From: Candidatus Saccharimonadota bacterium
GTDB taxonomy: Bacteria; Patescibacteriota; Microgenomatia; UBA1406; GWC2-37-13
Assembly (NCBI GenBank): GCA_016699265.1
Contig: CP064967.1
Coordinates: forward strand, 840,001-872,000
Direction: 5' to 3'
Length of the DNA stretch: 32,000 nt
Shown: positions 5,175 to 18,302 of the stretch, piece after piece
Layout of the letters: each line of letters starts with the position of its first letter
Numbering within the stretch: position 1 is the stretch's first letter
Made by a program: the position numbers and the translations under genes
Notes under the pieces: model-generated
The model's input: only the letters and a program-made list of their open reading frames with translations
Databases searched by the model: none
Told to the model about the DNA's origin: nothing

Positions 5175-5226
5175 CTTACGGTTGATAGGTCTGTTGGTAT
5201 TTTTCAACAGAGTATACTTAGGCTAC

Positions 5227-5808
5227 ATGGCTAGAATTTTCTCTCATGCAAATGACACGAAAACGTTGAAGAATAAAGATTTTGTCAGTGAAGGAAATTA
5301 TCAGAAGAACTTCGATAATCAAGCAGAAGAACAACTTATACAGGAAAGCGGAAGAGAAGATGCTGTCAAAAGCCAATCTAAAAAAAAGGAGACTGATGAG
5401 CATAAGCTTGATGATATGCTTGCTCAATCTAACCGTATAATCGCAAGCGCCTCATCAATGTTTCCATGGGATTTTTTTCCAAGCACCATTAATGTTGAGG
5501 AGACGCGTGTAACCATTATCCACCGCCAATTATTATCCTCCCAAGTTCATAGCGTCGATATAAAAAGTATATCTAATGTATTTATTAACACCGATCTATT
5601 CTTTGCATCGATTACGATTGTTTCCTCTACCTTCAAAGAAAATAGCATTAAGATTATGAAGTTAAGAAAACATCAGGCAATTCTCACGCGTAGAATAATC
5701 GAGGGGATGCGAATGTTTGTTGAAAAAGATATAAACACTTCAAAATACTCAGTTCAAGAGTTGATCGGTCAACTCAAAGAACTAAGTAAAACAAAAACAA
5801 TATTCTAA
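5227..5808 (+). CDS. Hypothetical protein, possibly with a bacterial PH-like C-terminal domain
   Basis: ATG 5227 is preceded by TATACT-N8. The N-terminal half is charged and low-complexity. The C-terminal half (ETRVTIIHRQLLSSQVHSVDIKSISNVFINTDLFFASITIV) resembles bPH-type domains, but this is a weak call. Confidence 0.5.
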   Translation: MARIFSHANDTKTLKNKDFVSEGNYQKNFDNQAEEQLIQESGREDAVKSQSKKKETDEHKLDDMLAQSNRIIASASSMFPWDFFPSTINVEETRVTIIHRQLLSSQVHSVDIKSISNVFINTDLFFASITIVSSTFKENSIKIMKLRKHQAILTRRIIEGMRMFVEKDINTSKYSVQELIGQLKELSKTKTIF

Positions 5809-5853
5809 ATGGAAATACTATTGGTACGCATTAGTCTATCTTCGTATAAGGAG

Positions 5854-6166
5854 TCAATGCTGGAGACCTGACACTGCCCCTATCTCAAGGAACATATATG
5901 GAAACCGTTCAAGAGGCTTCAGACTTGGGGAAGAGACTGGTTCTGTTCCAGTGACACCTGTGAGATAGAAGTGAACTCGATGAAATGCCTGCGGTTGTTG
6001 TGTTGTGCTGATTGGCAACTTGGAATTAAGTTCCTGCTGTGGAATCAGGCCTATGAAAAGTGTTGAGTACCGAACATCTTTTGCACTGTTACCGATCTCG
6101 CTCGCTACTCTTTGGGTCTCGAGTTCTGTCAGAGCAAGCTTTTACCAATCTGCTTTGAGAAATTTC
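5854..6166 (-). pseudogene. Out-of-frame relic of the ~100-codon C-terminal tail of surface paralogue A
   Basis: About 98% nucleotide identity to the in-frame tail of paralogue B (8109..8420). Two 1-nt contractions, T4 at 6140-6143 versus T5 in B and T6 at 6177-6182 versus T7 in B, put it out of frame with 6167..8059. Confidence 0.6.
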
Positions 6167-6263
6167 CTATCTCATCTTTTTTACAGTCCAACCTAATTTT
6201 GGTTTATTAAAAGTAACTGGTTGGTATTCGTAGTAAATATATGGACGAGAAACGCCGTTCACC
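5873..6263. repeat. Direct repeat block 1, copy A (C-terminal codons plus tail)
   Basis: Aligns with 8122..8513, with only about 5 substitutions and two 1-nt indels over roughly 390 nt. Confidence 0.9.
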
Positions 6264-8059
6264 AAGAGTCTATTACTAGAGTTAACAGAGACATCCCAGT
6301 TATCGTTCTTGATAAACGGATCGGCATATGTAAGTGAGAAGTTTGGACTTATGGATATAGACCTTGTGGTAGAGGAATATATGAAAAGGGTTGGAGAAGG
6401 TCCAGTAACGCGGATTGGACAACCAGCCGGTAAACCACCATCAAACAGCGTTCCAATGTCGGGCCTTATGTTTATGTCTAACTGTGGACGGTCACCCGCC
6501 TTAACATTAGAGTAATCTATGCCTGTTTCCAATATGTTTGTAAGTTGAGTTATGTCGGTTGTTTTAGGGATAACATACAAATCTAGATCCTCAGTATTTA
6601 CAAAATACTGATTTCCATTTGCGTCGGTCTGCATCGTCTGATTGCTGACGTCTATACCGCCAGTACATGGCGATTGATTTGCTGGTACATCAGGTGCGAG
6701 CGTTGCAGCTGTAGGTCCAACCTGTGGCGGGGTAGCTACCGGAGGCTGAGTTGGTAGCGGTGTTGGGGGTGGTGGTGTTGGCGTTGGCGTAAAGGTGCCT
6801 AGGTTAATTCCTGGATTTTCATCTTCAGATTGAGCTAATAATCGTGAGGTAGAAGCTCCGAGCACCTCTTGTTTTGTAGCAGAGACCGCAGCAAGAACCT
6901 TCACTCTGTATCCTGAGGCTAGAACACCGCTACCTCTAAATACATAGTAAGGAATGAGTTTTGTCTGGACTGTGCCTGGCATCTCCTCTAAGTAAGTCAA
7001 AATGCTCTCCGTCACCTCCACCTGTGAAAGCTTGGCGGTGTCTTTGGGATACAACTTCGCATAGTCAACAGCACCCTCTCCTGCAGGGATCGTATAGATC
7101 TTATCGTATCGATTCGCCTTCAAACGCGTGACTGCCTCGTCATAGGAAATTGTAGGTATTTGTTCGACTGCTTTTATGCGTCGAGCGTTAGATGCTACAG
7201 AAATTACCTTACCCTCCTTTACTCCGACTGTAACCGTGCTGAAATCATTAGGTCGTCGTAGGCCATCTGTTTTGTCCGAAGTATTAATTACTCTTTTGTC
7301 CTTAACATTGCCCACCGCTACTCCAATTTTAAGTTTGGAAAAAGGAATGGCCTCTTGAGTATTGAAGAGACCAAAGAAACTTAGAATTGGAAGGCTTACT
7401 GAATCCCAACTTCTATGTAGTTCGTAATAATGGATTCCTGGAGTACTTGTCTTATCGTACTCATTTGTAATGACTAGGGTATTTTCATGAAACATATTGT
7501 GCACAAAAGTTTCAACACTACTTTTGACTGTTTGGGGCTTAACTTGTTGTGGTAAAGCCACGCCATCTGAGGATATATAGACAAATGCACCACTTGGCTT
7601 TTGAAGATACAGCATATCTGTTGAGGTTTTAGCGCTGAATCTACCCGCGTTCTCATCTATCTTCGGTTCTTTAATCAGTCCTGCCAAGATATTTTTGAAA
7701 TCAGAGAGTGAATAATTTTCTAGGAATGAAAATGTTCGTAGAGATCTTGGAACAGTCACTGCTGGAGCAGAGATCTTCCATGTCCCAACAGTTACTTGAG
7801 GAAGAGGGTGGGCCATTTTTTTGGCTGGAGTGTCTTGCTTATTCCCTCCTGTCGTCTGTGTTTGTGATTGTTTTGTAGATGAAGATTGTTCTTCTACCTT
7901 AGCCTGCTTTGGCATAAAAAAAGATAAAGCCACTGCAATGACTAGGAGTACGACACATAAGGCTCCTGCGATTATGAGCAATTTATTCTTAGAAATTTTC
8001 TCTTCCTGTTTGGAAAGGTTGTAGATGGAGTTACTTGGTGGTAAAGAATTTTCAGTCAT
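6167..8059 (-). CDS. Membrane-anchored surface protein, paralogue A (630 aa as assembled)
   Basis: Short N-terminal segment, one TM helix (LLIIAGALCVVLLVIAVALSFF), a large external body, a Pro/Thr linker TPTPTPPPPTPLPTQPP and a Cys-containing C-terminal domain. No family recognised. Confidence 0.85.
   Translation of the reverse strand: MTENSLPPSNSIYNLSKQEEKISKNKLLIIAGALCVVLLVIAVALSFFMPKQAKVEEQSSSTKQSQTQTTGGNKQDTPAKKMAHPLPQVTVGTWKISAPAVTVPRSLRTFSFLENYSLSDFKNILAGLIKEPKIDENAGRFSAKTSTDMLYLQKPSGAFVYISSDGVALPQQVKPQTVKSSVETFVHNMFHENTLVITNEYDKTSTPGIHYYELHRSWDSVSLPILSFFGLFNTQEAIPFSKLKIGVAVGNVKDKRVINTSDKTDGLRRPNDFSTVTVGVKEGKVISVASNARRIKAVEQIPTISYDEAVTRLKANRYDKIYTIPAGEGAVDYAKLYPKDTAKLSQVEVTESILTYLEEMPGTVQTKLIPYYVFRGSGVLASGYRVKVLAAVSATKQEVLGASTSRLLAQSEDENPGINLGTFTPTPTPPPPTPLPTQPPVATPPQVGPTAATLAPDVPANQSPCTGGIDVSNQTMQTDANGNQYFVNTEDLDLYVIPKTTDITQLTNILETGIDYSNVKAGDRPQLDINIRPDIGTLFDGGLPAGCPIRVTGPSPTLFIYSSTTRSISISPNFSLTYADPFIKNDNWDVSVNSSNRLLVNGVSRPYIYYEYQPVTFNKPKLGWTVKKMR
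6736..7375. repeat. Direct repeat block 2, copy A (central domain plus Pro/Thr linker)
   Basis: Aligns with 8963..9602 at an offset of 2227 nt. By eye, identity is about 98% over the first ~250 nt and falls to about 90% further on. Confidence 0.85.
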
Positions 8060-8076
8060 GGAAATACTATTAGCAC

Positions 8077-8106
8077 ATAATAGTCTATTTTTAGATATGG
8101 AGTCAA
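8077..8106 (-). promoter_or_regulatory. Sigma70-like promoter TTGACT-N18-TATTAT upstream of paralogue A
   Basis: Minus strand reads TTGACTccatatctaaaaatagacTATTATgtgctaatagtatttccATG. It starts just after the stop codon of paralogue B. Confidence 0.45.
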
Positions 8107-8108
8107 AT

Positions 8109-10292
8109 CTAGCGACCCGATACTGCCCCTATCTCAAGGAACATATATGGAAATCGCTCAAGAGGCTTCAGACTTGGGGAAGAGACTGGTTCTGTTCCAG
8201 TGGCACCTGTGAGATAGAAGTGAACTCGATGAAATGCCTGCGGTTGTTGTGTTGTGCTGATTGGCAGCTTGGAATTAAGTTCCTGCTGTGGAATCAGGCC
8301 TATGAAAAGTGTTGAGTACCGAACATCTTTTGCACTGTTACCGATCTCGCTCGCTACTCTTTGGGTCTCGAGTTCTGTCAGAGCAAGCTTTTTACCAATC
8401 TGCTTTGAGAAATTTCCGATCTCATCTTTTTTTACAGTCCAACCTAATTTTGGTTTATTAAAAGTAACTGGTTGGTATTCGTAGTAAATATATGGACGAG
8501 AAACGCCGTTCACATTGAGATTTACTCCGTTATTCACATCAACATTCCAGGTACTGTTTTTAACTAATGGGTCTGCGTAAGTAAGTGAGAAGTTTGGACT
8601 TATGGTTATAGACCTTGTGGTTGAGGAATAGACAAAAAGAGTTGGAGAATAACCGGAAATTTGAATCGGACAATTTACAGGCAAGCCTTGATCTAATTTT
8701 ACTGTCAAGTTGGGATCAACTTCCTGCGGTCTATCACCCGTTTGAGTTTTTGCTAACGCTATCCCCTGCTCTATAGTAACGTAAAACTGCGCAACGTCAG
8801 CAGTCTTTGGGATAACGTATAAATCGCCACCGCTTACAAAGTATTGATTTCCTTCTGGGTCTATTTGTACATTCGTAGGCTCAATGTCATTGCTACATGT
8901 TATTGCGGGAGGTAGCGGAGCAGACGTTTCAACAACCTCGGCTACCTGCCCTGGAGTAAGTACTACCGGAGGCTGAGTTGGTAGCGGTGTTGGGGGTGGT
9001 GGAGTTGGTGTCGGCGTAAAGGTACCTAGGTTAATTCCTGGATTTTCATCTTCAGATTGAGCCAGTAATCGTGAGGTAGAAGCTCCGAGCACCTCTTGTT
9101 TTGTAGCAGAGACCGCAGCAAGAACCTTCACTCTATATCCTGAGGCTAGAACACCGCTACCTCTAAATACATAGTAAGGAATGAGTTTTGTCTGGACTGT
9201 GCCTGGCATCTCCTCAAGGTAAGTTAGGATACTCTCAGTCACCTCCACCTGTGAAAGCTTAGCGGTGTCTTTGGGATACAACTTCGCATAGTCAACGACA
9301 CCCTCTCCTGCTGGGATCGTATAGATCCTGTCGTATCGATTCGCCTTCAAACGCGTAACTGCATCGGCATAGGAGATCGTAGGCATTTGTTCGACTCCTT
9401 TAATACGTCGGGCATTAGATGTTATAGAAACTACCTTACCGTCCTTTACTCCGACCGTGACGGTGCTAAAGTCATTGGGTCTTCGCAGACCATCTGTTTT
9501 GTCCGAAGTATTGATTACTCTTTTGTCCTTAACGTTGCCCACCGCTACTCCAATTTTTAGTTTGGAAAAAGGAATAGCCTCTTGAGTATTGAAAAGACCC
9601 AAAAAACTCAGAACCGGAAGTCCACTGGCTTCCCAGCTCCTATGCAGTTCGTAGTATCTAACTCCTGGGTTATTCGTTTTATCAAACTCAGTCGTAATCA
9701 CTAATGTATTTTCGTGAAATAATCTATGTACCAAGCTCTCTACCGCACTTCTTCTATCGGCTTCTTTTTCATCTGCCAAACTGACTCCTTTTGGTGACAG
9801 TAGAATAAATGAACCACTCGGTTTCTGGACATACAACATGTCTGAAGTTTGAGACGTAACAATAAATCGATTCGCATTTTCTTCAATCTTGGGTTGTTGA
9901 TAAAATCCTACCAACATATTATTTAGGTCAGTGAGTGTGAAATTTTCCAGAAAGGAATAAACTCTAGCAGAAGGTTGGGATTTCAGTGCAGTGGCCAAAA
10001 TATTCCATTTCCCAACAGTTACCTGAGGTAAAGGATGTGATTGAGGAGTCGCGGCCCCTACTCCTTTTTTCAGTCCGCCCTTAGTAGTAGAGTTCTTTCC
10101 AGAATTTAGTTGCTCATTTGAGTTTGTTTTTTGATTGGAGAAATAGGCTACGGCAACAACGATGGTCAGGAGAACTCCGCATAAAACACCCGCTAGTATT
10201 AGTAGCTTTTTCTTAGATCCATTCTCATTTTGAAACGGCAAATCGGCAACTTGTCCGCTTGAGGGTACGGCATTTGAATCTATGGCATTCAT
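8109..10292 (-). CDS. Membrane-anchored surface protein, paralogue B (727 aa from ATG 10292)
   Basis: Same architecture as paralogue A, plus an in-frame ~100-aa C-terminal tail. ATG 10292 (MNAIDS...) is preferred over the TTG at 10301, which lies inside the -10 box. Confidence 0.85.
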   Translation of the reverse strand: MNAIDSNAVPSSGQVADLPFQNENGSKKKLLILAGVLCGVLLTIVVAVAYFSNQKTNSNEQLNSGKNSTTKGGLKKGVGAATPQSHPLPQVTVGKWNILATALKSQPSARVYSFLENFTLTDLNNMLVGFYQQPKIEENANRFIVTSQTSDMLYVQKPSGSFILLSPKGVSLADEKEADRRSAVESLVHRLFHENTLVITTEFDKTNNPGVRYYELHRSWEASGLPVLSFLGLFNTQEAIPFSKLKIGVAVGNVKDKRVINTSDKTDGLRRPNDFSTVTVGVKDGKVVSITSNARRIKGVEQMPTISYADAVTRLKANRYDRIYTIPAGEGVVDYAKLYPKDTAKLSQVEVTESILTYLEEMPGTVQTKLIPYYVFRGSGVLASGYRVKVLAAVSATKQEVLGASTSRLLAQSEDENPGINLGTFTPTPTPPPPTPLPTQPPVVLTPGQVAEVVETSAPLPPAITCSNDIEPTNVQIDPEGNQYFVSGGDLYVIPKTADVAQFYVTIEQGIALAKTQTGDRPQEVDPNLTVKLDQGLPVNCPIQISGYSPTLFVYSSTTRSITISPNFSLTYADPLVKNSTWNVDVNNGVNLNVNGVSRPYIYYEYQPVTFNKPKLGWTVKKDEIGNFSKQIGKKLALTELETQRVASEIGNSAKDVRYSTLFIGLIPQQELNSKLPISTTQQPQAFHRVHFYLTGATGTEPVSSPSLKPLERFPYMFLEIGAVSGR
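8122..8513. repeat. Direct repeat block 1, copy B
   Basis: Partner of 5873..6263, at an offset of 2249-2251 nt. Confidence 0.9.
8963..9602. repeat. Direct repeat block 2, copy B
   Basis: Partner of 6736..7375. Confidence 0.85.
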
Positions 10293-10300
10293 ATGTATCA

Positions 10301-10330
10301 ATATTAGTTTAATAACTAAGATAAAGTCAA
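10301..10330 (-). promoter_or_regulatory. Sigma70-like promoter TTGACT-N18-TAATAT, ending 8 nt before the ATG at 10292
   Basis: Minus strand reads aTTGACTttatcttagttattaaacTAATATtgatacatATG. It lies in the 48-nt gap after the Clp ATPase stop codon. Confidence 0.45.
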
Positions 10331-10340
10331 TATTTCCGAC

Positions 10341-12815
10341 CTACTTTTGAATAGTCGTGTAGTTGTCGACTACCTGTTTTTGAACATCGACAGCTGGTTG
10401 AGGAACGTTGCTTGGCGCAGATTGAGCAACAGATTGAAGTTTGGAAAAAACAAAGTTCTCATCACTCTCAACGTAGTCTATAACTATGGTATCCCCTGAG
10501 ATATATTTCTTTTCGATCAGTAAAAGAGCAACGGGATTTTCGATAGAACTCTGGATAAGACGTCGCAGAGGCCGAGCACCATAAACTGGATCGTACCCGT
10601 CTTTTGCTAACTGGGAAAGGGCTTTTTCCGTAATTGTTATGCCAACTCCTTGCTCCTTTAATAAAGACTTTGTTTTCTCTATGCCAAGCTTTGCAATCTC
10701 CACCATATGGTCTGGAGCTATTGGCTCAAAAATTATGACTTCGTCGAATCGATTGATTAACTCAGGCTTGAAGAATTTATGAAGTTCGGTCATTACTATC
10801 TCAGAGAGATGCTTGAAGTTTTTTTCCTTTTCTTCTTTTGGTTTTACTGAAGAAAGCTGTTGTTGAATCAGTACGCTCCCTATATTGGATGTCGTAATCA
10901 ATATGGTATTCTTAAATGAAACCGTGTTTCCTTTGTTGTCTGTTAATCTACCATCTTCAAGAACCTGTAGGAGTATATTGAACACGTCGGGATGTGCTTT
11001 CTCCACCTCATCAAGTAATACGATCGAGTAGGGTTTTCTTCTTACGGCCTCGGTAAGTTGTCCGCCTTCTTCGTATCCTACATATCCTGGAGGAGCGCCA
11101 ATCAACTTCGCAACTTCATGTTTTTCCATATACTCACTCATGTCCAGTCTTATAATGGCGTCATCTTTTCCAAATAGTGTTTCTGCTAACGTCTTTGCTA
11201 ATTCGGTCTTTCCTACACCTGTTGGACCGAGAAAAATGAAAGAGGCTATGGGTCTTCCGCTGCTTGCGAGTCCGATTCTTCCTCTTCTAACAGCCTCAGC
11301 AATAGAGCTTACGGCATGTTCTTGGCCTATAAGTCGCTTATGAATTAGTTTCTCAAGATTTAACAACTTTTGACTCTCGTCCTCTGTAAGCTTGGCGATT
11401 GGTATACCGGTCCATCCGCTTATTACGGCCTCTATGTCACTTTTCTTAACTTCACTGTCCTTTCTTTTGCCTCCTGCGAACTCCAACTTAACTCCCGCCG
11501 CTGCCTCGTCTATAAGGTCAACCGCCTTATCTGGTAGATATCTTTCCCCTATATATCTCTTGGAAAGATGCACCGAAGCATCTATTGCTTCCTGAGAAAT
11601 CGTAACCTTATGAAACGCTTCATACTTCGGTTTAAGATAGAGCAGCATGCTTTTTGCAACGTCTTCTGTTGGTTCCTCAACCAATACAGGTTGGAATCTT
11701 CGTTCAAAAGCCTTGTCTTTCTGGAAATGTTTTCTGTATTCTGACAGAGTTGTCGTGCCAATTATCTGTATCTGGCCACGAGAAAGATATGGTTTTATTA
11801 TGTTTGACGCATCCATAGATCCCTGCTCATCTCCAGCCCCTATTAAGGTATGAACCTCATCTACAAAAAGAATTATTTGCCCCTGTGAAATCTGGACTTC
11901 CTTTATGACATTTCTGATTCTTTCCTCAAACTCTCCTCTATGACTTGCTCCCGCAACTAAGGACGACATCTCAAGTTGAATAATTTTCTTTGATGAAAGT
12001 TCTTTAGGGGTCTTGTTCTGAACAATTGCTTGTGCCAAACCTTCTACAACTGCTGTCTTTCCCACTCCAGCCTCACCTATCACGATTGGATTATTTTTAG
12101 TTCTCCTTAGCAATATATGGACTACGCGCTCAACCTCCACATCTCTTCCGCATACAGGATCTAATAAGTTTTGTCGCGCCATTTCCGTTAGGTCACTTCC
12201 GTATGTCTGCAGAACAGATTTTTTAATCGGTTTATCATTTGTCATGCTCTTTACCATTTCTTTTTGTTTCTCCTCGTCGAATCCATGATTTTTTAGCACT
12301 GCAGCCACAGTCACAGCTTCTGGCTCAGTCAAAAATGACTGTAATATATCGAGTGGTTCTATAAATGAAGAGTTCTTACCTTTTGCGACGGTGAGCGCGC
12401 TCTCAAGTAACTTAATGCTCTTTTGCCCTAATGTTGGCTGGCCGGAAAAACTACCACGGACCTGACTGCTTTGAAGCTCGCTCAAAATCTTCTCGGGATC
12501 AATAGTGGCTTTTTTAAACAGACTGAAAATTACTCGATCATAGAGAAGACCTATAAGTATCTGCTCTGGTTCTATAGCAGATTGGTTAATTTTTTTTGTC
12601 TCATTCTCAGCCTGACTCAAGACCTGAGTTGAGTCACTGTCTAGCTGGCTCAAAACAGATACGCTGTTGCGTACACTTGGAGACATCGATGAGCCCACAA
12701 CGTTTGGACCTTGTTCTACGGGAGACGGTTGGGTTGGCGCAGCCTCCGCGATTGCAGGAGCAACATAAGTGGGCATTGGCGCAACTTTTTTATTTCTAAA
12801 CAATCCTCCGAGCAT
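10341..12815 (-). CDS. Clp/Hsp100-family double-ring AAA+ ATPase (ClpA/B/C-like, atypical)
   Basis: 824 aa. Two Clp_N-like repeats. D1 has Walker A GEAGVGKTAVVEG and Walker B ILFVDEVH. D2 has Walker A GPTGVGKTELAK and Walker B IVLLDEVEKAHPDV, plus GARPLRR. The D1-D2 linker is very short. Confidence 0.9.
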   Translation of the reverse strand: MLGGLFRNKKVAPMPTYVAPAIAEAAPTQPSPVEQGPNVVGSSMSPSVRNSVSVLSQLDSDSTQVLSQAENETKKINQSAIEPEQILIGLLYDRVIFSLFKKATIDPEKILSELQSSQVRGSFSGQPTLGQKSIKLLESALTVAKGKNSSFIEPLDILQSFLTEPEAVTVAAVLKNHGFDEEKQKEMVKSMTNDKPIKKSVLQTYGSDLTEMARQNLLDPVCGRDVEVERVVHILLRRTKNNPIVIGEAGVGKTAVVEGLAQAIVQNKTPKELSSKKIIQLEMSSLVAGASHRGEFEERIRNVIKEVQISQGQIILFVDEVHTLIGAGDEQGSMDASNIIKPYLSRGQIQIIGTTTLSEYRKHFQKDKAFERRFQPVLVEEPTEDVAKSMLLYLKPKYEAFHKVTISQEAIDASVHLSKRYIGERYLPDKAVDLIDEAAAGVKLEFAGGKRKDSEVKKSDIEAVISGWTGIPIAKLTEDESQKLLNLEKLIHKRLIGQEHAVSSIAEAVRRGRIGLASSGRPIASFIFLGPTGVGKTELAKTLAETLFGKDDAIIRLDMSEYMEKHEVAKLIGAPPGYVGYEEGGQLTEAVRRKPYSIVLLDEVEKAHPDVFNILLQVLEDGRLTDNKGNTVSFKNTILITTSNIGSVLIQQQLSSVKPKEEKEKNFKHLSEIVMTELHKFFKPELINRFDEVIIFEPIAPDHMVEIAKLGIEKTKSLLKEQGVGITITEKALSQLAKDGYDPVYGARPLRRLIQSSIENPVALLLIEKKYISGDTIVIDYVESDENFVFSKLQSVAQSAPSNVPQPAVDVQKQVVDNYTTIQK

Positions 12816-12820
12816 AATTT

Positions 12821-12849
12821 ATTATGCTTTATTGTTAATGACATGTAAA
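12821..12849 (-). promoter_or_regulatory. Sigma70-like promoter TTTACA-N17-CATAAT, ending 5 nt before the ATG at 12815
   Basis: Minus strand reads cTTTACAtgtcattaacaataaagCATAATaaattATG. No Shine-Dalgarno sequence. Confidence 0.45.
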
Positions 12850-12915
12850 GCACTTGGCCACCATATCAATTGAGCTTTTCCATCGGTTAGACAACCCTCA
12901 TAAATCCAGAAGTTC

Positions 12916-14925
12916 TTAACTGTCTTGTTTCAAATTTGAAACTTCGAGCGAGGAGAAATTATTTTTTTCCGGCTCTACCTTTGCCTCAACATGGAGCTCT
13001 TTTGAGCTTAACTGTTGTTTTGCTTCAACATCTACAAATTCCTCATCCTTAACCTCCGCGAGCTTTTCTAAAACAGATTTACATGCTTCTTCTTTCGATT
13101 TTAGATATGCGATAACCTCGGTCTGTGAGAATCCTCCAACCAATAGAATTGGCAGGATTTTTGAGGCTTTCGACATCCCTTCTCTTCCTTTTTCTTTGTC
13201 GCGAGATACTAATAGATTGATTAACTCCTCTACGTCCTTGAGTTCCTGCTTAATCCAGTCCTCTCTTTTCATCTGAGCACCTTCTTTGCTCTTTGGAGGG
13301 TTTATTTTTTGGTAATTTGCAATCCATGTTTTTTTAACGTCCTCATAGTCATCTATACTTACGCTTTGAACTGGATTTACAGTTGGAAAAGTATCGAGCG
13401 TTGAACCTGAGGTTACGGTCTCTGCCGCTTTCAAAATTGTTGCGGCAACCGAACTACCTTGCTCCTTATCGTGAAGAAGTCGAGTTCTCACGTATGAGTA
13501 GTGATGTCGATCCTCAGCCGAGGTCATAGTCTCTGGTCTAGCGACTCCCATTAAGGTGTTCTGGATATTTGTTATTTGCTGTGTTTGTCCTTCGAATTTT
13601 GCAATGTCTCTGATTGTGGGAATTGTCATATTTATAAGACGCATACTCTCAGTATCTTTTTGGGTATATGTTTGGCGTGAAGTTGAGTAACGGCTTGTCT
13701 CACTTGATGTGCTCGATTGATAGCTGGGAATCGCTCTTTCTACGCCCGTAGAACGTGTAGAACTGGGTGGAATGATTACGGGTCCAGGACTGGACAAAAA
13801 CCTGTTATACAGTCCTGAAGAAGATTTAAATAGTTGGTAGACGCCCTCCTGAAGGGGATAACTTTTGAAGACATCGATCAAAATCTTTAACAATATGAAT
13901 GGGAGGATAATTACGACCCACAGCATGAGAAGAGAAACTACGTACAATGCGAAGGTTCCCGGATTATTAACGCTATTTTCAATAGAAATCACTTGACCAG
14001 GACCACCAATAAGAATGTTTACCGCTGTGGGATACAGTCCCGCTTCAGTACCAAAAGCAAAGTCAAGGGGTATTCCGGATGTTGTAGGAGTACTGGCTTT
14101 CCAGATAATAACAAGCCCAGAAAGTAAAACAGTAAAAATGGGCGCATACAGTACCCATCTAAGAAACTCGCCTACCCAAATTTTAGCAGTGTTTCTTATC
14201 GGATTGAAAAGAATCAACAAAGGAAATATTGGAGACAAAATAATGAAGAACCACATAATTATCTTCCTAATTAGAAGGATTCCGGCCATCGCAAAATAAG
14301 TTGCTGAAGTGGCTCTTATCAGAAACAAAGAAATTTCTCCAGACTCATTTAACTGATCACCAGTTCTTCTAAAACCCTGGAAACTGGTGTAGTCGAAAGA
14401 GATGCTTAGCAAATCTTTTGAGGAGATTATTGAACCATTTGACAATCTTAAGAAAAATCCTTGTATGAGATCTGTAAGCTGATATATTATCTGCAGAAGC
14501 GAATAGGAAAAAGCTATGAGAAGAACGATAGCAATAAACCTAGGAATAAACTCTTTGACCTTCAGGTTTCTTCCCCTTGTCGTTACGAATACGAAGGCAG
14601 CTATCAAAACCATTAGGATTAAAAATGCATACACAACGTCTCTGATGGAGACCCATGCGCTCGCTAATGGACTTGGCTGCCCAGGAACAACATTAGCCCA
14701 GTAATAAGTTTGAAGCGTCCAGTCAAGGAATGCCCCTATTCTGTTTGCCGTTTTACCAACCACTGTTGTTTCTGCATCCGTTACCCAACCAGTACTCACT
14801 ACGGCCTGTGTCCCTGCTGGGGTTGTCGTTGAAACTCTACCCTGCGCAATGACTGGCCGAAAGACAGAACTCGCCAAGAATAAAACAACCAGTCCCGTGA
14901 AGAATGTGTTAACAATATTTCTCAT
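12916..14925 (-). CDS. Large polytopic membrane protein with a long cytoplasmic C-terminal region (possible VirB6/TrbL-like partner of the pilin)
   Basis: 669 aa. Signal-like N-terminus (LVVLFLASSVFRPVIAQG), at least 6 hydrophobic helices, and a Ser/Thr-rich then charged ~290-aa tail. The start lies 3 nt after the pilin-like stop codon. The VirB6 label rests only on topology and on the neighbouring pilin-like gene. Confidence 0.5.
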   Translation of the reverse strand: MRNIVNTFFTGLVVLFLASSVFRPVIAQGRVSTTTPAGTQAVVSTGWVTDAETTVVGKTANRIGAFLDWTLQTYYWANVVPGQPSPLASAWVSIRDVVYAFLILMVLIAAFVFVTTRGRNLKVKEFIPRFIAIVLLIAFSYSLLQIIYQLTDLIQGFFLRLSNGSIISSKDLLSISFDYTSFQGFRRTGDQLNESGEISLFLIRATSATYFAMAGILLIRKIIMWFFIILSPIFPLLILFNPIRNTAKIWVGEFLRWVLYAPIFTVLLSGLVIIWKASTPTTSGIPLDFAFGTEAGLYPTAVNILIGGPGQVISIENSVNNPGTFALYVVSLLMLWVVIILPFILLKILIDVFKSYPLQEGVYQLFKSSSGLYNRFLSSPGPVIIPPSSTRSTGVERAIPSYQSSTSSETSRYSTSRQTYTQKDTESMRLINMTIPTIRDIAKFEGQTQQITNIQNTLMGVARPETMTSAEDRHHYSYVRTRLLHDKEQGSSVAATILKAAETVTSGSTLDTFPTVNPVQSVSIDDYEDVKKTWIANYQKINPPKSKEGAQMKREDWIKQELKDVEELINLLVSRDKEKGREGMSKASKILPILLVGGFSQTEVIAYLKSKEEACKSVLEKLAEVKDEEFVDVEAKQQLSSKELHVEAKVEPEKNNFSSLEVSNLKQDS

Positions 14926-14928
14926 CTT

Positions 14929-15222
14929 TTATTCAAATCCTGGCACCTGTAATATTTGGGCGACTATCACCTTTACAAAAAGTACCCCCAAGGCTGCAAA
15001 CACTAATCCAATTACTGAGTATTTAAGATAATCCTTTCCCTTATTTACTTCATCGGGTCTGCCCTGTGAAGTTATAAGAACATAACTTCCGTAAATTAAT
15101 GACAAGAAAGAAACTATACCTATGAGTCCTAGGCCAATGTTGTATACGAATTGTACAAAATGTGCTGGGTCCCCCGGAATACACCCTAGGTCCGTAGCCA
15201 TTTCTCCAGTTTTACAGTCCAT
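14929..15222 (-). CDS. T4SS-pilin-like small membrane protein (TrbC/VirB2-like, CPR type)
   Basis: 97 aa. A DLGCIPGDPAHFV motif is followed by two hydrophobic helices separated by SQGRPDEVNKGKDY. From memory this matches the Pfam T4SS_pilin family described from CPR genomes. Confidence 0.6.
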   Translation of the reverse strand: MDCKTGEMATDLGCIPGDPAHFVQFVYNIGLGLIGIVSFLSLIYGSYVLITSQGRPDEVNKGKDYLKYSVIGLVFAALGVLFVKVIVAQILQVPGFE

Positions 15223-15317
15223 ATTTTATAGTAACATAATGTGGGCGTGCGTGCTCAAACGCAGGAATTGTCTATGGATGAAGTATGGGTAATTGCCAAG
15301 CTATAAAGAATCCTTAA

Positions 15318-15695
15318 TTATCGTCGTCGGTTCTCGGTTTTAAAGTTTTTCTTTATGCCAACCACGACCGGAAGAATGAAGATTAAGATGTAATACAGAT
15401 ACACATCTGGTTTATAGTACCCATCTGCAGGATTGAAGACCTTAACAAGAAGAAAGTAGTCGAGAGCTATCGCAAGTATCGTCCATACCACAGCTAACAT
15501 TACGTAGTACTGAACGGATGTAGATTTAATTTTTTTAAATAAAACCCATAGAGTAATCACTGTACCAATTGGAGTAAGAATCCAACCAATCATCGATGGA
15601 CTCACAACGAAAAAAAGCAGAATACCTAGAATGTAACCGATCAACCAAAGAACTGAACCCCAACCAAACGCGTCCTTGTAAAACTGTTTACTCAT
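15318..15695 (-). CDS. Hypothetical 4-TM membrane protein
   Basis: 125 aa, four hydrophobic helices, basic C-terminus. No family recognised. Confidence 0.6.
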   Translation of the reverse strand: MSKQFYKDAFGWGSVLWLIGYILGILLFFVVSPSMIGWILTPIGTVITLWVLFKKIKSTSVQYYVMLAVVWTILAIALDYFLLVKVFNPADGYYKPDVYLYYILIFILPVVVGIKKNFKTENRRR

Positions 15696-17161: not shown

Positions 17162-18302
17162 CTAAGATCTTTCTTCCTGAAAAATACCATCGAATTCATC
17201 TTTAATCTCTCCAACCAATTTTTCTACAATATCTTCTAAAGCAACTAACCCAGAAGTAGCACCATCTTCACCGACCACTACGGCAATATGGACTCTTTTA
17301 GCACGCAGCAATACCAGCACGTCATCTATCCTATCGACTTCTTTGACGCGCGGAATTGATCTAATTATCTTAATTTGAGCCAATGTCCTCTCCCCTGAGC
17401 CTTTAAAAACACGTCATGTATCTCTTTAGTTGAGGCTCCTTTTTATCCGAAATGAGGTGAGCATAGATGTCTTTTATATGAACGAATCCCACAATATTAT
17501 CCATCGTATTTTCATAGATAGGAAACCTACTATGCTGATAGCTTTGCGTTGTTTTCAGGATCTTGGCAATTGTTATCTTCTTTTCAAAAGCAATTATTTT
17601 CGATTTTGGAATCATAACCTTACTTACTGGCGTATCTCCTAGTTTTAATACGCTATAAACCATCTCAACTTCATTTTTTTCCAACGCTCCTTCTGCAACA
17701 CTTTGAGCAAGTATTATTTTTATTTCCTCCTCAGAATGTACGAGTTGTCTTCCTGATGGCGCAGAAAATCCGACCAGTCTTAAGACTAAATTACCAACTT
17801 CATTCAAAACCCAGATAAACGGTTTGAAAACTGTCGCAAATAATGTGAGCGGAGCAATGATGAATAGCGATGTAGTTTCTGCTTTTTTTAGCGCTATCGT
17901 TTTTGGCGCCAGCTCTCCAAGAACGATATGTAAAAATGTTATTATCGTGAATGCAATTACAAAGGCAACGCTATGTGAGGTTATGACCGCAGCTCCCTGA
18001 GGCAATATATTATGAAGAGCCGGCTCTATAAATCGGGCAATGGCCGGTTCACCTATCCACCCGAGCGCAAGGGAAGCAAGAGTAATTCCTAGCTGCGTAG
18101 CGGAAATAAACGTATCGAGTTGGGCAATCGATTTTTGTACTAATTTAGCAGGTTTGTTACCCTTTTTTACCAATACATCAATTCGCGTTTTTCTTACCGC
18201 AACTAACGCAAATTCTGAAGCAACAAAAAAACCATTCAGAAAAACAAGGAGTAAGACTAGTCCAAATTGAAAAATGAATTCCACGCATGATAATTCTAAC
18301 AC
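17162..18302 (-). pseudogene. CNNM/HlyC-type DUF21-CBS-CBS membrane protein, split by a 1-nt frameshift (ORFs 17403..18302 and 17162..17383)
   Basis: The 299-aa ORF holds the DUF21 TM domain and the first CBS motif. The 73-aa ORF holds the second CBS (VHIAVVVGEDGATSGLVALEDIVEKLVGEI). Removing one base from the A5 run at 17405-17409 fuses them as ...MTCFKGSGERTLAQIKII... No CorC_HlyC C-terminal domain follows. Confidence 0.7.

Follow-up and report, generated by a model that had tools for sequence, protein, structure and literature searches.

Blockwise homogenisation, probably by gene conversion, of a tandem pair of predicted surface-protein genes in a candidate phyla radiation bacterium

Introduction

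Helicobacter pylori carries paralogous adhesin genes, babA/babB and sabA/sabB, which have conserved 5' and 3' parts and a differing middle segment that binds the ligand. Conversion and chimeras between these loci vary among strains; the loci are dispersed, and they code, in a diderm pathogen, for beta-barrel outer-membrane proteins whose glycan ligands are known. The genes yycH and yycI, which bear on the present study through the architecture of their products, are adjacent genes. Here, we describe a pair of genes, A (the distal copy) and B (the proximal copy), that are arranged in tandem and not dispersed as in H. pylori. Both are read on the minus strand of a 32,000-nucleotide (nt) stretch of DNA, referred to as the window, whose positions serve as coordinates throughout. 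The window is part of CP064967, the circular 928,688-bp metagenome-assembled genome (MAG) Damh_18-Q3-R51-60_BAT3C.63_uni from Danish activated sludge, a "Ca. Roizmanbacteria" genome (Patescibacteria; Microgenomatia; o__UBA1406; f__GWC2-37-13) of the candidate phyla radiation (CPR).

The lpl cluster of Staphylococcus aureus, as described in the available portion of PMC2568036, resembles this locus in that adjacent same-strand paralogues undergo inter-copy recombination that changes copy number and makes hybrids. Its conserved unit spans the 3' end of an open reading frame (ORF), the intergenic region and the start of the next gene, and in the present locus the tail and the intergenic region are repeated after both A and B. 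Unlike the lpl proteins, A and B have no lipobox, carry a type-II transmembrane (TM) anchor and were found here in CPR genomes only, as two copies, with an internal variable module left out of the exchange. The merozoite surface antigen paralogues of Plasmodium falciparum offer a further likeness, since neighbouring surface-protein genes swap segments and deep types stand beside homogenised parts, according to the accessible text of PMC10919680; that case differs in involving a eukaryotic parasite, meiotic recombination and unrelated proteins. In predicted architecture, A and B resemble YycH and YycI, the WalK accessory membrane proteins of Firmicutes, which have an N-terminal single TM segment and an extracytoplasmic alpha/beta multi-domain body (PMC7355866, in the part available). 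Unlike YycH and YycI, the proteins studied here are two to three times longer and possess an added linker, variable module and C-terminal domain, and no kinase or response regulator was found adjoining their genes in Pfam scans of most window ORFs of at least 100 aa.

Results

Identity between the two copies is restricted to blocks

The ORF list and a repeat finder resolved a pair of tandem units at 5809-8057 and 8058-10300 that each contain a single large gene on the minus strand, in agreement with an earlier sequence-only reading of this DNA. When the units were compared by the repeat finder and by MAFFT alignment, the blocky identity that this reading had described was recovered almost to the base (Table 1). 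A C-terminal/tail block and a core block, the latter comprising the second half of the ectodomain and the Pro/Thr linker, are highly similar between the copies, and the N-terminal third and a variable segment are strongly diverged and contain indels, as had been claimed. The core, which had been put at 90-98% identity, proved to be a mosaic of sub-tracts ranging from 83% to 100% around its overall value. The run of about 105 identical residues reported within it (VDYAKLYPKDT...PLPTQPPV) is real; at 111 amino acids (aa) it is slightly longer than counted and is the longest such run between A and B. The GWTVKKDEIGNF peptide in an A-type context is indistinguishable from that of B.

Synonymous divergence and block phylogeny point to gene conversion

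The proportion of synonymous differences (pS) was determined for each block by the Nei-Gojobori method on a codon alignment in which the reading frame of A had been repaired (see below). We found pS to be saturated in the N-terminal blocks (0.84 and 0.72) and in the variable module (0.75), intermediate in a short semi-conserved stretch at alignment codons 566-605 (0.48), lower in the two core halves (0.31 and 0.18), and lowest in the C-terminal block. Divergence between the copies is therefore non-uniform, with excess identity in the conserved blocks (pS 0.065-0.31 inside the exchanged tracts and 0.72-0.84 outside). When synonymous differences were pooled, 45 of 256 sites differed in the core and C-terminal domain compared with 177 of 233 in the other blocks (Fisher p = 2e-40), a contrast that protein constraint could not produce.

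The relationships among blocks were compared with those in a contig of another species, designated L006 (related loci and database proteins are cited by our L and P numbers), which has 57% protein identity to B. This contig shows the same synteny, a family gene followed by DUF5671 and zinc-finger genes, and also carries a tandem pair, with P0005 as its distal copy. In the N domain, A has 82% DNA identity to the L006 distal copy and 65% to B. The reverse holds elsewhere: A and B are 92% identical in the core, where each has 69-70% identity to L006, and 99% identical in the tail, where identity to L006 is 79-80%. Since the N domain of A is nearer to the distal copy of L006 than to B, the paralogues predate the species split, and the duplication itself is old and not recent, preceding the separation from the L006 species. 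The closest relative is thus the orthologue in one part of the gene and the paralogue in the others, the reversal by which concerted evolution is recognised. Furthermore, the 79 nt available from the tail of the L006 proximal copy are 100% identical to the tail of the distal copy, so the tail has been homogenised independently in a second species.

Taken with the polymorphic variants described below, the per-block pS and the incongruent block phylogeny bear out the gene conversion that had been proposed for this locus. It is likely, judging from these sequences, that inter-copy gene conversion overwrote the core and the C-terminal domain, and the C-terminal block appears to be the youngest conversion tract.

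The differences between A and B in the core are mostly transitions. A diversity-generating retroelement was considered as a separate candidate and rejected: the adenine bias expected of such an element was not found, sub-block mismatches being spread evenly over T, G, A and C, and no reverse transcriptase was found in Pfam scans of the window ORFs of at least 100 aa (most, not all, of which were scanned).

Patches, chimeras and unit loss among close relatives

Assemblies of the same species, with about 99% identity in the flanks, were compared with the window. The two-copy arrangement recurs in L002, an independent Joint Genome Institute (JGI) assembly that is collinear with the window at 99.2% over 14.8 kb, as well as in L003 and in a further GenBank MAG with the adjacent locus tags KBC14_03485/03490. 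Tandem pairs are also present in three more distant genomes (L006, L007 and L013). This survey of related genomes returned two-copy, one-copy and chimeric forms, and thus both the unit loss and the chimera formation that the long repeats had been suggested to drive.

Polymorphic tracts of several kinds were observed in these metagenome assemblies. The A-type protein P0285 contains a B-type stretch within its core (...KDGKVVSITSNARRIKGVEQMPTISYAD...), and P0278 and P0279 carry shorter B-type patches. In L003, the proximal copy follows B up to B-coordinate 9003 and is A-type from 8962, which yields a B protein with the variable module of A. The crossover falls inside a 40-nt identical stretch (8963-9002), and because 40 nt is less than the k of 119 suggested by the contig name (k119_...), this junction must have been carried by reads.

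Four assemblies, L016-L019, one of them on a 707-kb contig, lack exactly one unit. They align to the window as 16292->8058 and 6398->..., with an overlap of about 590 nt comprising the sub-block and the tail, within which the one-unit deletions recombine. They encode a 729-aa hybrid consisting of the body of B and the terminal ...SGLQH of A, followed by the downstream neighbour of A. A third arrangement was observed in L001 and P0297, where the only copy is a B-type gene that ends differently (...WERGS); L001 lacks both A and its downstream neighbour ORF208. At L001 12190-12260, where the end of the B-type gene meets the DUF5671 gene, there are about 45 nt without a counterpart in the window and a tandem repeat of about 18-19 nt of CTTTTTGCTTTCCTTCT. 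Because of this extra sequence and the CTTTTTGCTTTCCTTCT repeat at the junction, the L001 deletion (or ancestral state) would not have arisen by simple recombination between A and B repeats.

A third allele of sub-block 8514-8706 is present in L002 (about 9350-9550), in L017-L019, in many B copies and in several database proteins. Its identity is 76% to the B of the window, 69% to A and 74% to L006. The protein encoded by this allele shares the motifs PRSITLSP, DPSTK and SSSSLLV with P0005 of the other species, which hints that the allele was imported from a source other than A and B, or derives from a third paralogue at another site in the genome.

The truncation of A is probably an assembly error

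As assembled, A ends about 100 codons before B. The sequence-only reading had called the DNA beyond this point a 3' tail that is, together with the last codons, about 98% identical to B; the identity stands (98.0%), but the tail is homologous to the last ~100 codons of B, which are coding. Two 1-nt deletions, in A-runs that are each one base short in A, shift the frame relative to B. On the coding strand, B reads GTA AAA AAA GAT GAG ATC (V K K D E I) and stays open over roughly 100 further codons; A, with one A fewer, reads GTA AAA AAG ATG AGA TAG and stops. At the A4/A5 run, L002 also has a substitution. Restoring the two bases gives an intact 735-aa ORF with its stop at 5854-5856, whose last ~130 residues differ from those of B at one position, the terminal few residues excepted. 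Other versions of A from NCBI and JGI were sought in a collection of 15 billion proteins: all five full-length versions have 735 aa, and one partial sequence reads through both A-runs.

A comparison of the window with seven independent same-species assemblies over about 20 kb, divergent sub-blocks excluded, showed only four clean indels specific to the window, all of them 1-nt deletions in homopolymers, grouped into two tight clusters. The second cluster (A6->A5 at 17440-17445 and G5->G4 at 17392-17396, minus strand) lies about 11 kb from the deletions in A and splits a CNNM/CorC gene (17380-18302, minus strand) over three frames; this gene is a single 380-aa ORF in L001 and is intact across both sites in L002. 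According to PMC8012365, Unicycler was run on Nanopore and Illumina data under --no_correct --no_pilon --mode bold to produce the "uni" MAGs, and further polishing is described there for the Flye assemblies only. Because the A-run deletions are seen only in the unpolished hybrid assembly CP064967, they are probably errors. We consider it quite probable that the truncation of A is an assembly error and that both clusters represent long-read consensus that was never corrected; the apparent truncations of A and of the CNNM gene should thus not be taken as pseudogenes.

Alternatively, A could be truly truncated in this strain, through recent pseudogenisation of the C-terminal domain or through A6/A7 slippage acting as an on/off switch, with the tail a fresh remnant kept similar by conversion from B. 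The deletions do sit in homopolymers, where real slippage also happens, the first of them makes an in-frame heptamer A AAA AAG, and the deposited genome annotates a 630-aa protein. This explanation nevertheless requires two separate deletions 38 nt apart in short tracts (6-7 and 4-5 nt), and run length differs in the window alone when it is set against the seven assemblies and all other database proteins. The frame is intact in every other version of A seen and in 7/7 related assemblies compared, an unrelated gene (CNNM/CorC) has the same kind of paired homopolymer deletions, and the assembly was made without short-read polishing. True truncation is therefore unlikely. Programmed -1 frameshifting at A AAA AAG was rejected as well, because the second deletion brings a stop 16 codons downstream and a -1 slip at the first site cannot rescue the domain.

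Protein architecture and an internal variable module

The predicted domain order of both proteins is a short cytoplasmic N-terminus, a TM helix, an alpha/beta ectodomain, a Pro/Thr linker, a variable module with a Cys pair, and a conserved C-terminal domain. The N-terminal TM segment, the Pro/Thr linker and the Cys content noted earlier are present in both proteins, the Cys as a pair. The pair does not lie in a C-terminal domain, as had been thought: the Cys module is internal and is followed by the conserved C-terminal domain of ~130 aa. This position follows from the fact that the supposed 3' tail of A is the coding sequence of that domain. The KKK ahead of the TM helix of B suggests a topology with the N-terminus inside and the body outside.

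AlphaFold2 (AF2) was run on B with an 81-sequence alignment and gave a model with a predicted local distance difference test (pLDDT) score of 80.1; a run with six sequences reached 48.6 and was unusable. In the model, the ectodomain has three alpha/beta parts (aa ~90-400), the Pro/Thr linker is disordered, and pLDDT in the C-terminal domain is mostly >90. This domain is conserved, with invariant residues, in homologues down to 35% overall identity, and both Cys of the variable module are nearly invariant across the family.

Across the 81 family members, conservation is highest in the core and the C-terminal domain, and most of the indels lie in the variable module (354 extra alignment columns). 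Between A and P0005, which are likely orthologues, the variable module has 43% protein identity, compared with 82% for the N domain, 70% for the core and 75% for the C-terminal block. The idea of an exposed, diversifying C-terminal module thus holds as regards fast divergence (43% versus 70-82%) but not as regards its C-terminal position. Because synonymous divergence (dS) is saturated in this module, its ratio of nonsynonymous to synonymous divergence is not estimable.

A protein family of CPR bacteria

A HMMER profile search returned 1583 cluster representatives at E <= 0.001, 271 of them at E <= 1e-30, compared with only 8 relatives from a word-index search. Members are mostly 680-880 aa long and are matched end to end. 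Genome matches were to Microgenomates and Roizmanbacteria MAGs, and every member whose source was seen belongs to the CPR (Microgenomatia), apart from four further matches on MAG contigs labelled "uncultured Gammaproteobacteria" (including CAZLGV010000001.1), a label that is probably wrong. On CAZLGV010000001.1, an 804-kb contig whose size and genes resemble those of a CPR genome, two dispersed members (L009 and L010) lie about 35 kb apart in one genome.

No family had been recognised for these proteins from the sequence, and this judgement was correct. In searches of A and B against Pfam, NCBIfam, PADLOC and PHROGs, all matches were at chance level or confined to TM segments, and Pfam gave none at E <= 1. 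A Pfam scan of 58 diverse members gave the same kinds of match and no YycH or YycI, presumably families PF07435 and PF09648, at E <= 0.1. Sequence and profile searches of Protein Data Bank sequences yielded nothing useful.

When the AF2 model was searched with Foldseek, matches with low TM-scores were obtained to 5coz, an uncharacterised protein of Eubacterium rectale (E = 3e-6, probability 1.00, ~320 columns), and to Bacillus subtilis YycI, 2o3o (E = 7e-6 to 1e-4, probability 1.00, ~320 columns, root-mean-square deviation (rmsd) 10-13 A, TM-score 0.15-0.17 for the query and 0.34-0.38 for the target). We place the match in the N-terminal ectodomain because no other folded stretch ahead of the linker is that long. 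On the basis of the model, the N-terminal ectodomain is probably YycH/YycI-like in fold and architecture. We do not count the proteins as members of the YycH or YycI families, given the lack of a sequence match and of a neighbouring two-component system; the Pfam scans described above of ORFs in the window, which covered most but not all of those of at least 100 aa, contained no kinase or response regulator.

A viral fold search gave one strong match, BFVD A0A3G4ZNZ8 from Terrestrivirus sp., an uncharacterised 406-aa 'giant virus' protein that is uninformative on function. The match covers part of the model and is good (Foldseek E = 6.8e-10, rmsd 4.4 A, 206 columns); the sequence could stem from a CPR bacterium and have been placed in a metagenomic virus bin, or could reflect a genuine transfer.

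Gene starts, promoter-like sites and neighbouring genes

The features of the locus are listed in Table 1. The start of B is most likely the ATG at 10292, which is used by all relatives and by QQR63828.1, and not the TTG at 10301 given by a mechanical ORF call. The ORF starting at this TTG overlaps the -10-like hexamer upstream of B, and the start call is probably wrong. The TTGACT-N18 promoter-like site that had been noted for each gene is present upstream of both A and B. Across the region, promoter-like sites are not above shuffle expectation (8 found, 9.2 expected). The -10-like hexamer of B ends 8 nt before ATG 10292, with no space for a Shine-Dalgarno sequence, which suggests that the mRNA of B would be leaderless or near-leaderless. 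The copy of the B-A intergenic region at the end of the duplicated unit holds a third TTGACTCC and, on the minus strand, no gene lies downstream of it.

Directly upstream of B, a same-strand cluster (10341-15695, minus strand) encodes a 125-aa membrane protein, a 97-aa protein resembling pilins of type IV secretion systems (T4SS), a 669-aa protein and a ClpC-like AAA+ ATPase. The 97-aa protein corresponds to Pfam T4SS_pilin in relatives and has a weak NCBIfam match to the Mbov_0395 pilin-like conjugal transfer family; the 669-aa protein has a sub-threshold TrbL/VirB6 match. This pilin/VirB6/ClpC cluster is kept in all same-species assemblies. A functional link of A and B to the T4SS-pilin-like and VirB6-like genes was considered and set aside, neither gene having been found beside family members in L004-L015. 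Among those loci, a ClpC-like gene stands beside a family member once, in L013.

The other neighbours of the A/B locus are ORF208 and a DUF5671 protein. ORF208 (5182-5808, plus strand) encodes a widespread CPR hypothetical protein with 176 matches, including Levybacteria and Parcubacteria, and a weak match to a bacterial PH domain. It lies downstream of A in the window, in L002 and in L016-L018, and L001 and L006 lack it, so its presence at the locus varies.

Table 1. Positions of the two genes, their blocks, predicted protein features and associated sites in the window
Feature	Position	Strand	Remarks
Gene B (proximal copy), 727 aa, QQR63828.1	8109-10292	minus	ORF; directly downstream of the ClpC-like ATPase gene
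Gene A (distal copy) as assembled, 630 aa, ending ...GWTVKKMR and stop, QQR63827.1	6167-8059	minus	ORF
Out-of-frame rest of the conserved C-terminal domain of A	5854-6166	minus	98-100% identical to the coding 3' end of B
Promoter-like TTGACT-N18-TATTAT upstream of A, in the 49-nt B-A intergenic region	8106->8077	minus	10/12 consensus matches only
Promoter-like TTGACT-N18-TAATAT upstream of B	10330->10301	minus	9/12 consensus matches only
Copy of the B-A intergenic region downstream of A	5809-5872	minus	75% identical to 8058-8121; end of the duplicated unit
C-terminal/tail block	A 5873-6263; B 8122-8513	minus	98.0% DNA identity (385/393); pS 0.065
Core and Pro/Thr linker	A 6736-7375; B 8963-9602	minus	92.2% DNA identity, no gaps
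Variable segment	A 6264-6735; B 8514-8962	minus	55.7% DNA identity, 31 gap columns
N-terminal third	A 7376-8059; B 9603-10292	minus	58% DNA identity, 20 gap columns
TM helix of B, aa 30-51	10140-10205	minus	KKK just before
TM helix of A, aa 27-49	7913-7981	minus	KNK just before
Variable module of A, aa ~443-600, Cys465 and Cys547	6264-6735	minus	alignment
Variable module of B, Cys466 and Cys541	8514-8962	minus	alignment
First deletion in A, A6 run	6177-6182	minus	A7 in B and in A of 7/7 related assemblies compared
Second deletion in A, A4 run	6140-6143	minus	short relative to all relatives (A5 in B and most); 38 nt downstream of the first

Discussion

Our comparisons lead to a model in which A and B belong to a CPR surface-protein family and stem from an old tandem duplication that preceded the split from the L006 species. 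Repeated homologous recombination between the copies, presumably of the RecA type, would have overwritten the core and, in its latest round, the last ~390 nt with the C-terminal domain, and the N-terminal third and the variable module would have escaped conversion and stayed synonymously saturated. The homogenised blocks may then act as recombination substrates in the population, permitting the variable module to be swapped between copies, a whole unit to be deleted with formation of the B-body/A-end hybrid, and short patches to be exchanged; a third sub-block allele would also circulate. In vivo, both copies are probably full length, each presumably transcribed separately from its own promoter-like site. 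Segmental gene conversion and unequal crossover are textbook mechanisms; the protein family is newly described here.

The blocks might instead reflect unequal purifying selection after a single duplication, with no exchange between the copies. The homogenised blocks are indeed also the most conserved over the 81 family members (entropy 2.18-2.21 bits, compared with 2.6-2.9 bits elsewhere), but protein constraint cannot cut synonymous divergence tenfold (pS 0.065 versus 0.75-0.84), identity within a genome exceeds identity across species in the core and tail and the N domain behaves in the opposite way, and the tail of A, out of frame as assembled, is still 98% identical to that of B. Selection without exchange is accordingly a highly improbable explanation. 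That the duplication or its mosaic is an assembly artefact, from a collapsed or expanded repeat or from stitched strains, is scarcely credible: the source is a low-coverage hybrid metagenome assembly (roughly 12-15x, as we interpret the coverage column) made in 'bold' mode and single-copy versions exist in other assemblies, but the same two-copy arrangement occurs in L002, L003 and the KBC14_03485/03490 MAG, tandem pairs occur in three more distant genomes, and copies that differ by ~42-45% over 1.1 kb are not something an assembler invents.

Several observations weigh against parts of the model of conversion between two full-length, diversifying surface proteins. Short-read metagenome assemblies are the source of the chimera and of the single-copy hybrids, and the right-hand junctions lie in near-identical sequence, with exact matches of as much as 125 nt, so that assembly could have jumped from one copy to the other. 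Short-read assembly crosses the two-copy form correctly in L002, and probably also in JGI contigs of 61 kb and 165 kb. The L013 pair looked divergent throughout when both translations were read, and homogenisation may therefore not be general in the family. The saturated dS leaves positive selection on the variable module undemonstrated, the TM-scores of the YycI and 5coz matches are low (0.15-0.18 for the query, 0.31-0.38 for the target) and were reported without the aligned query range, and the frameshifts in A could be real strain-specific mutations.

Under the gene conversion model, the variable module would be an interaction surface, contacting a host cell, a phage or envelope material, provided that the bodies of A and B are exposed at the cell surface, as their predicted topology suggests. 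We tentatively raise a wider, and on balance doubtful, possibility: that the locus is a two-cassette surface-variation system of an episymbiotic CPR bacterium. In such a system the homogenised core and C-terminal blocks would serve as recombination handles, the Cys-pair module would be swapped between the two expressed copies and between strains, perhaps with foreign alleles such as the third one of the sub-block taking part, copy number would move between one and two, and the outcome would set the specificity of host attachment or of a phage receptor. In a weaker extension of this idea, A-run slippage may truly remove the C-terminal domain of A in some cells.

In summary, attachment to other cells is the presumed way of life of CPR bacteria, and the surface proteins that mediate it are almost wholly unknown. 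The locus described here points to a large unannotated family in which the order of domains is clear and a single hypervariable module undergoes recombination between strains of one wastewater species. The family is a reasonable candidate for partner recognition or for a phage-exposed protein, and offers a convenient marker of strain-level recombination in CPR populations.

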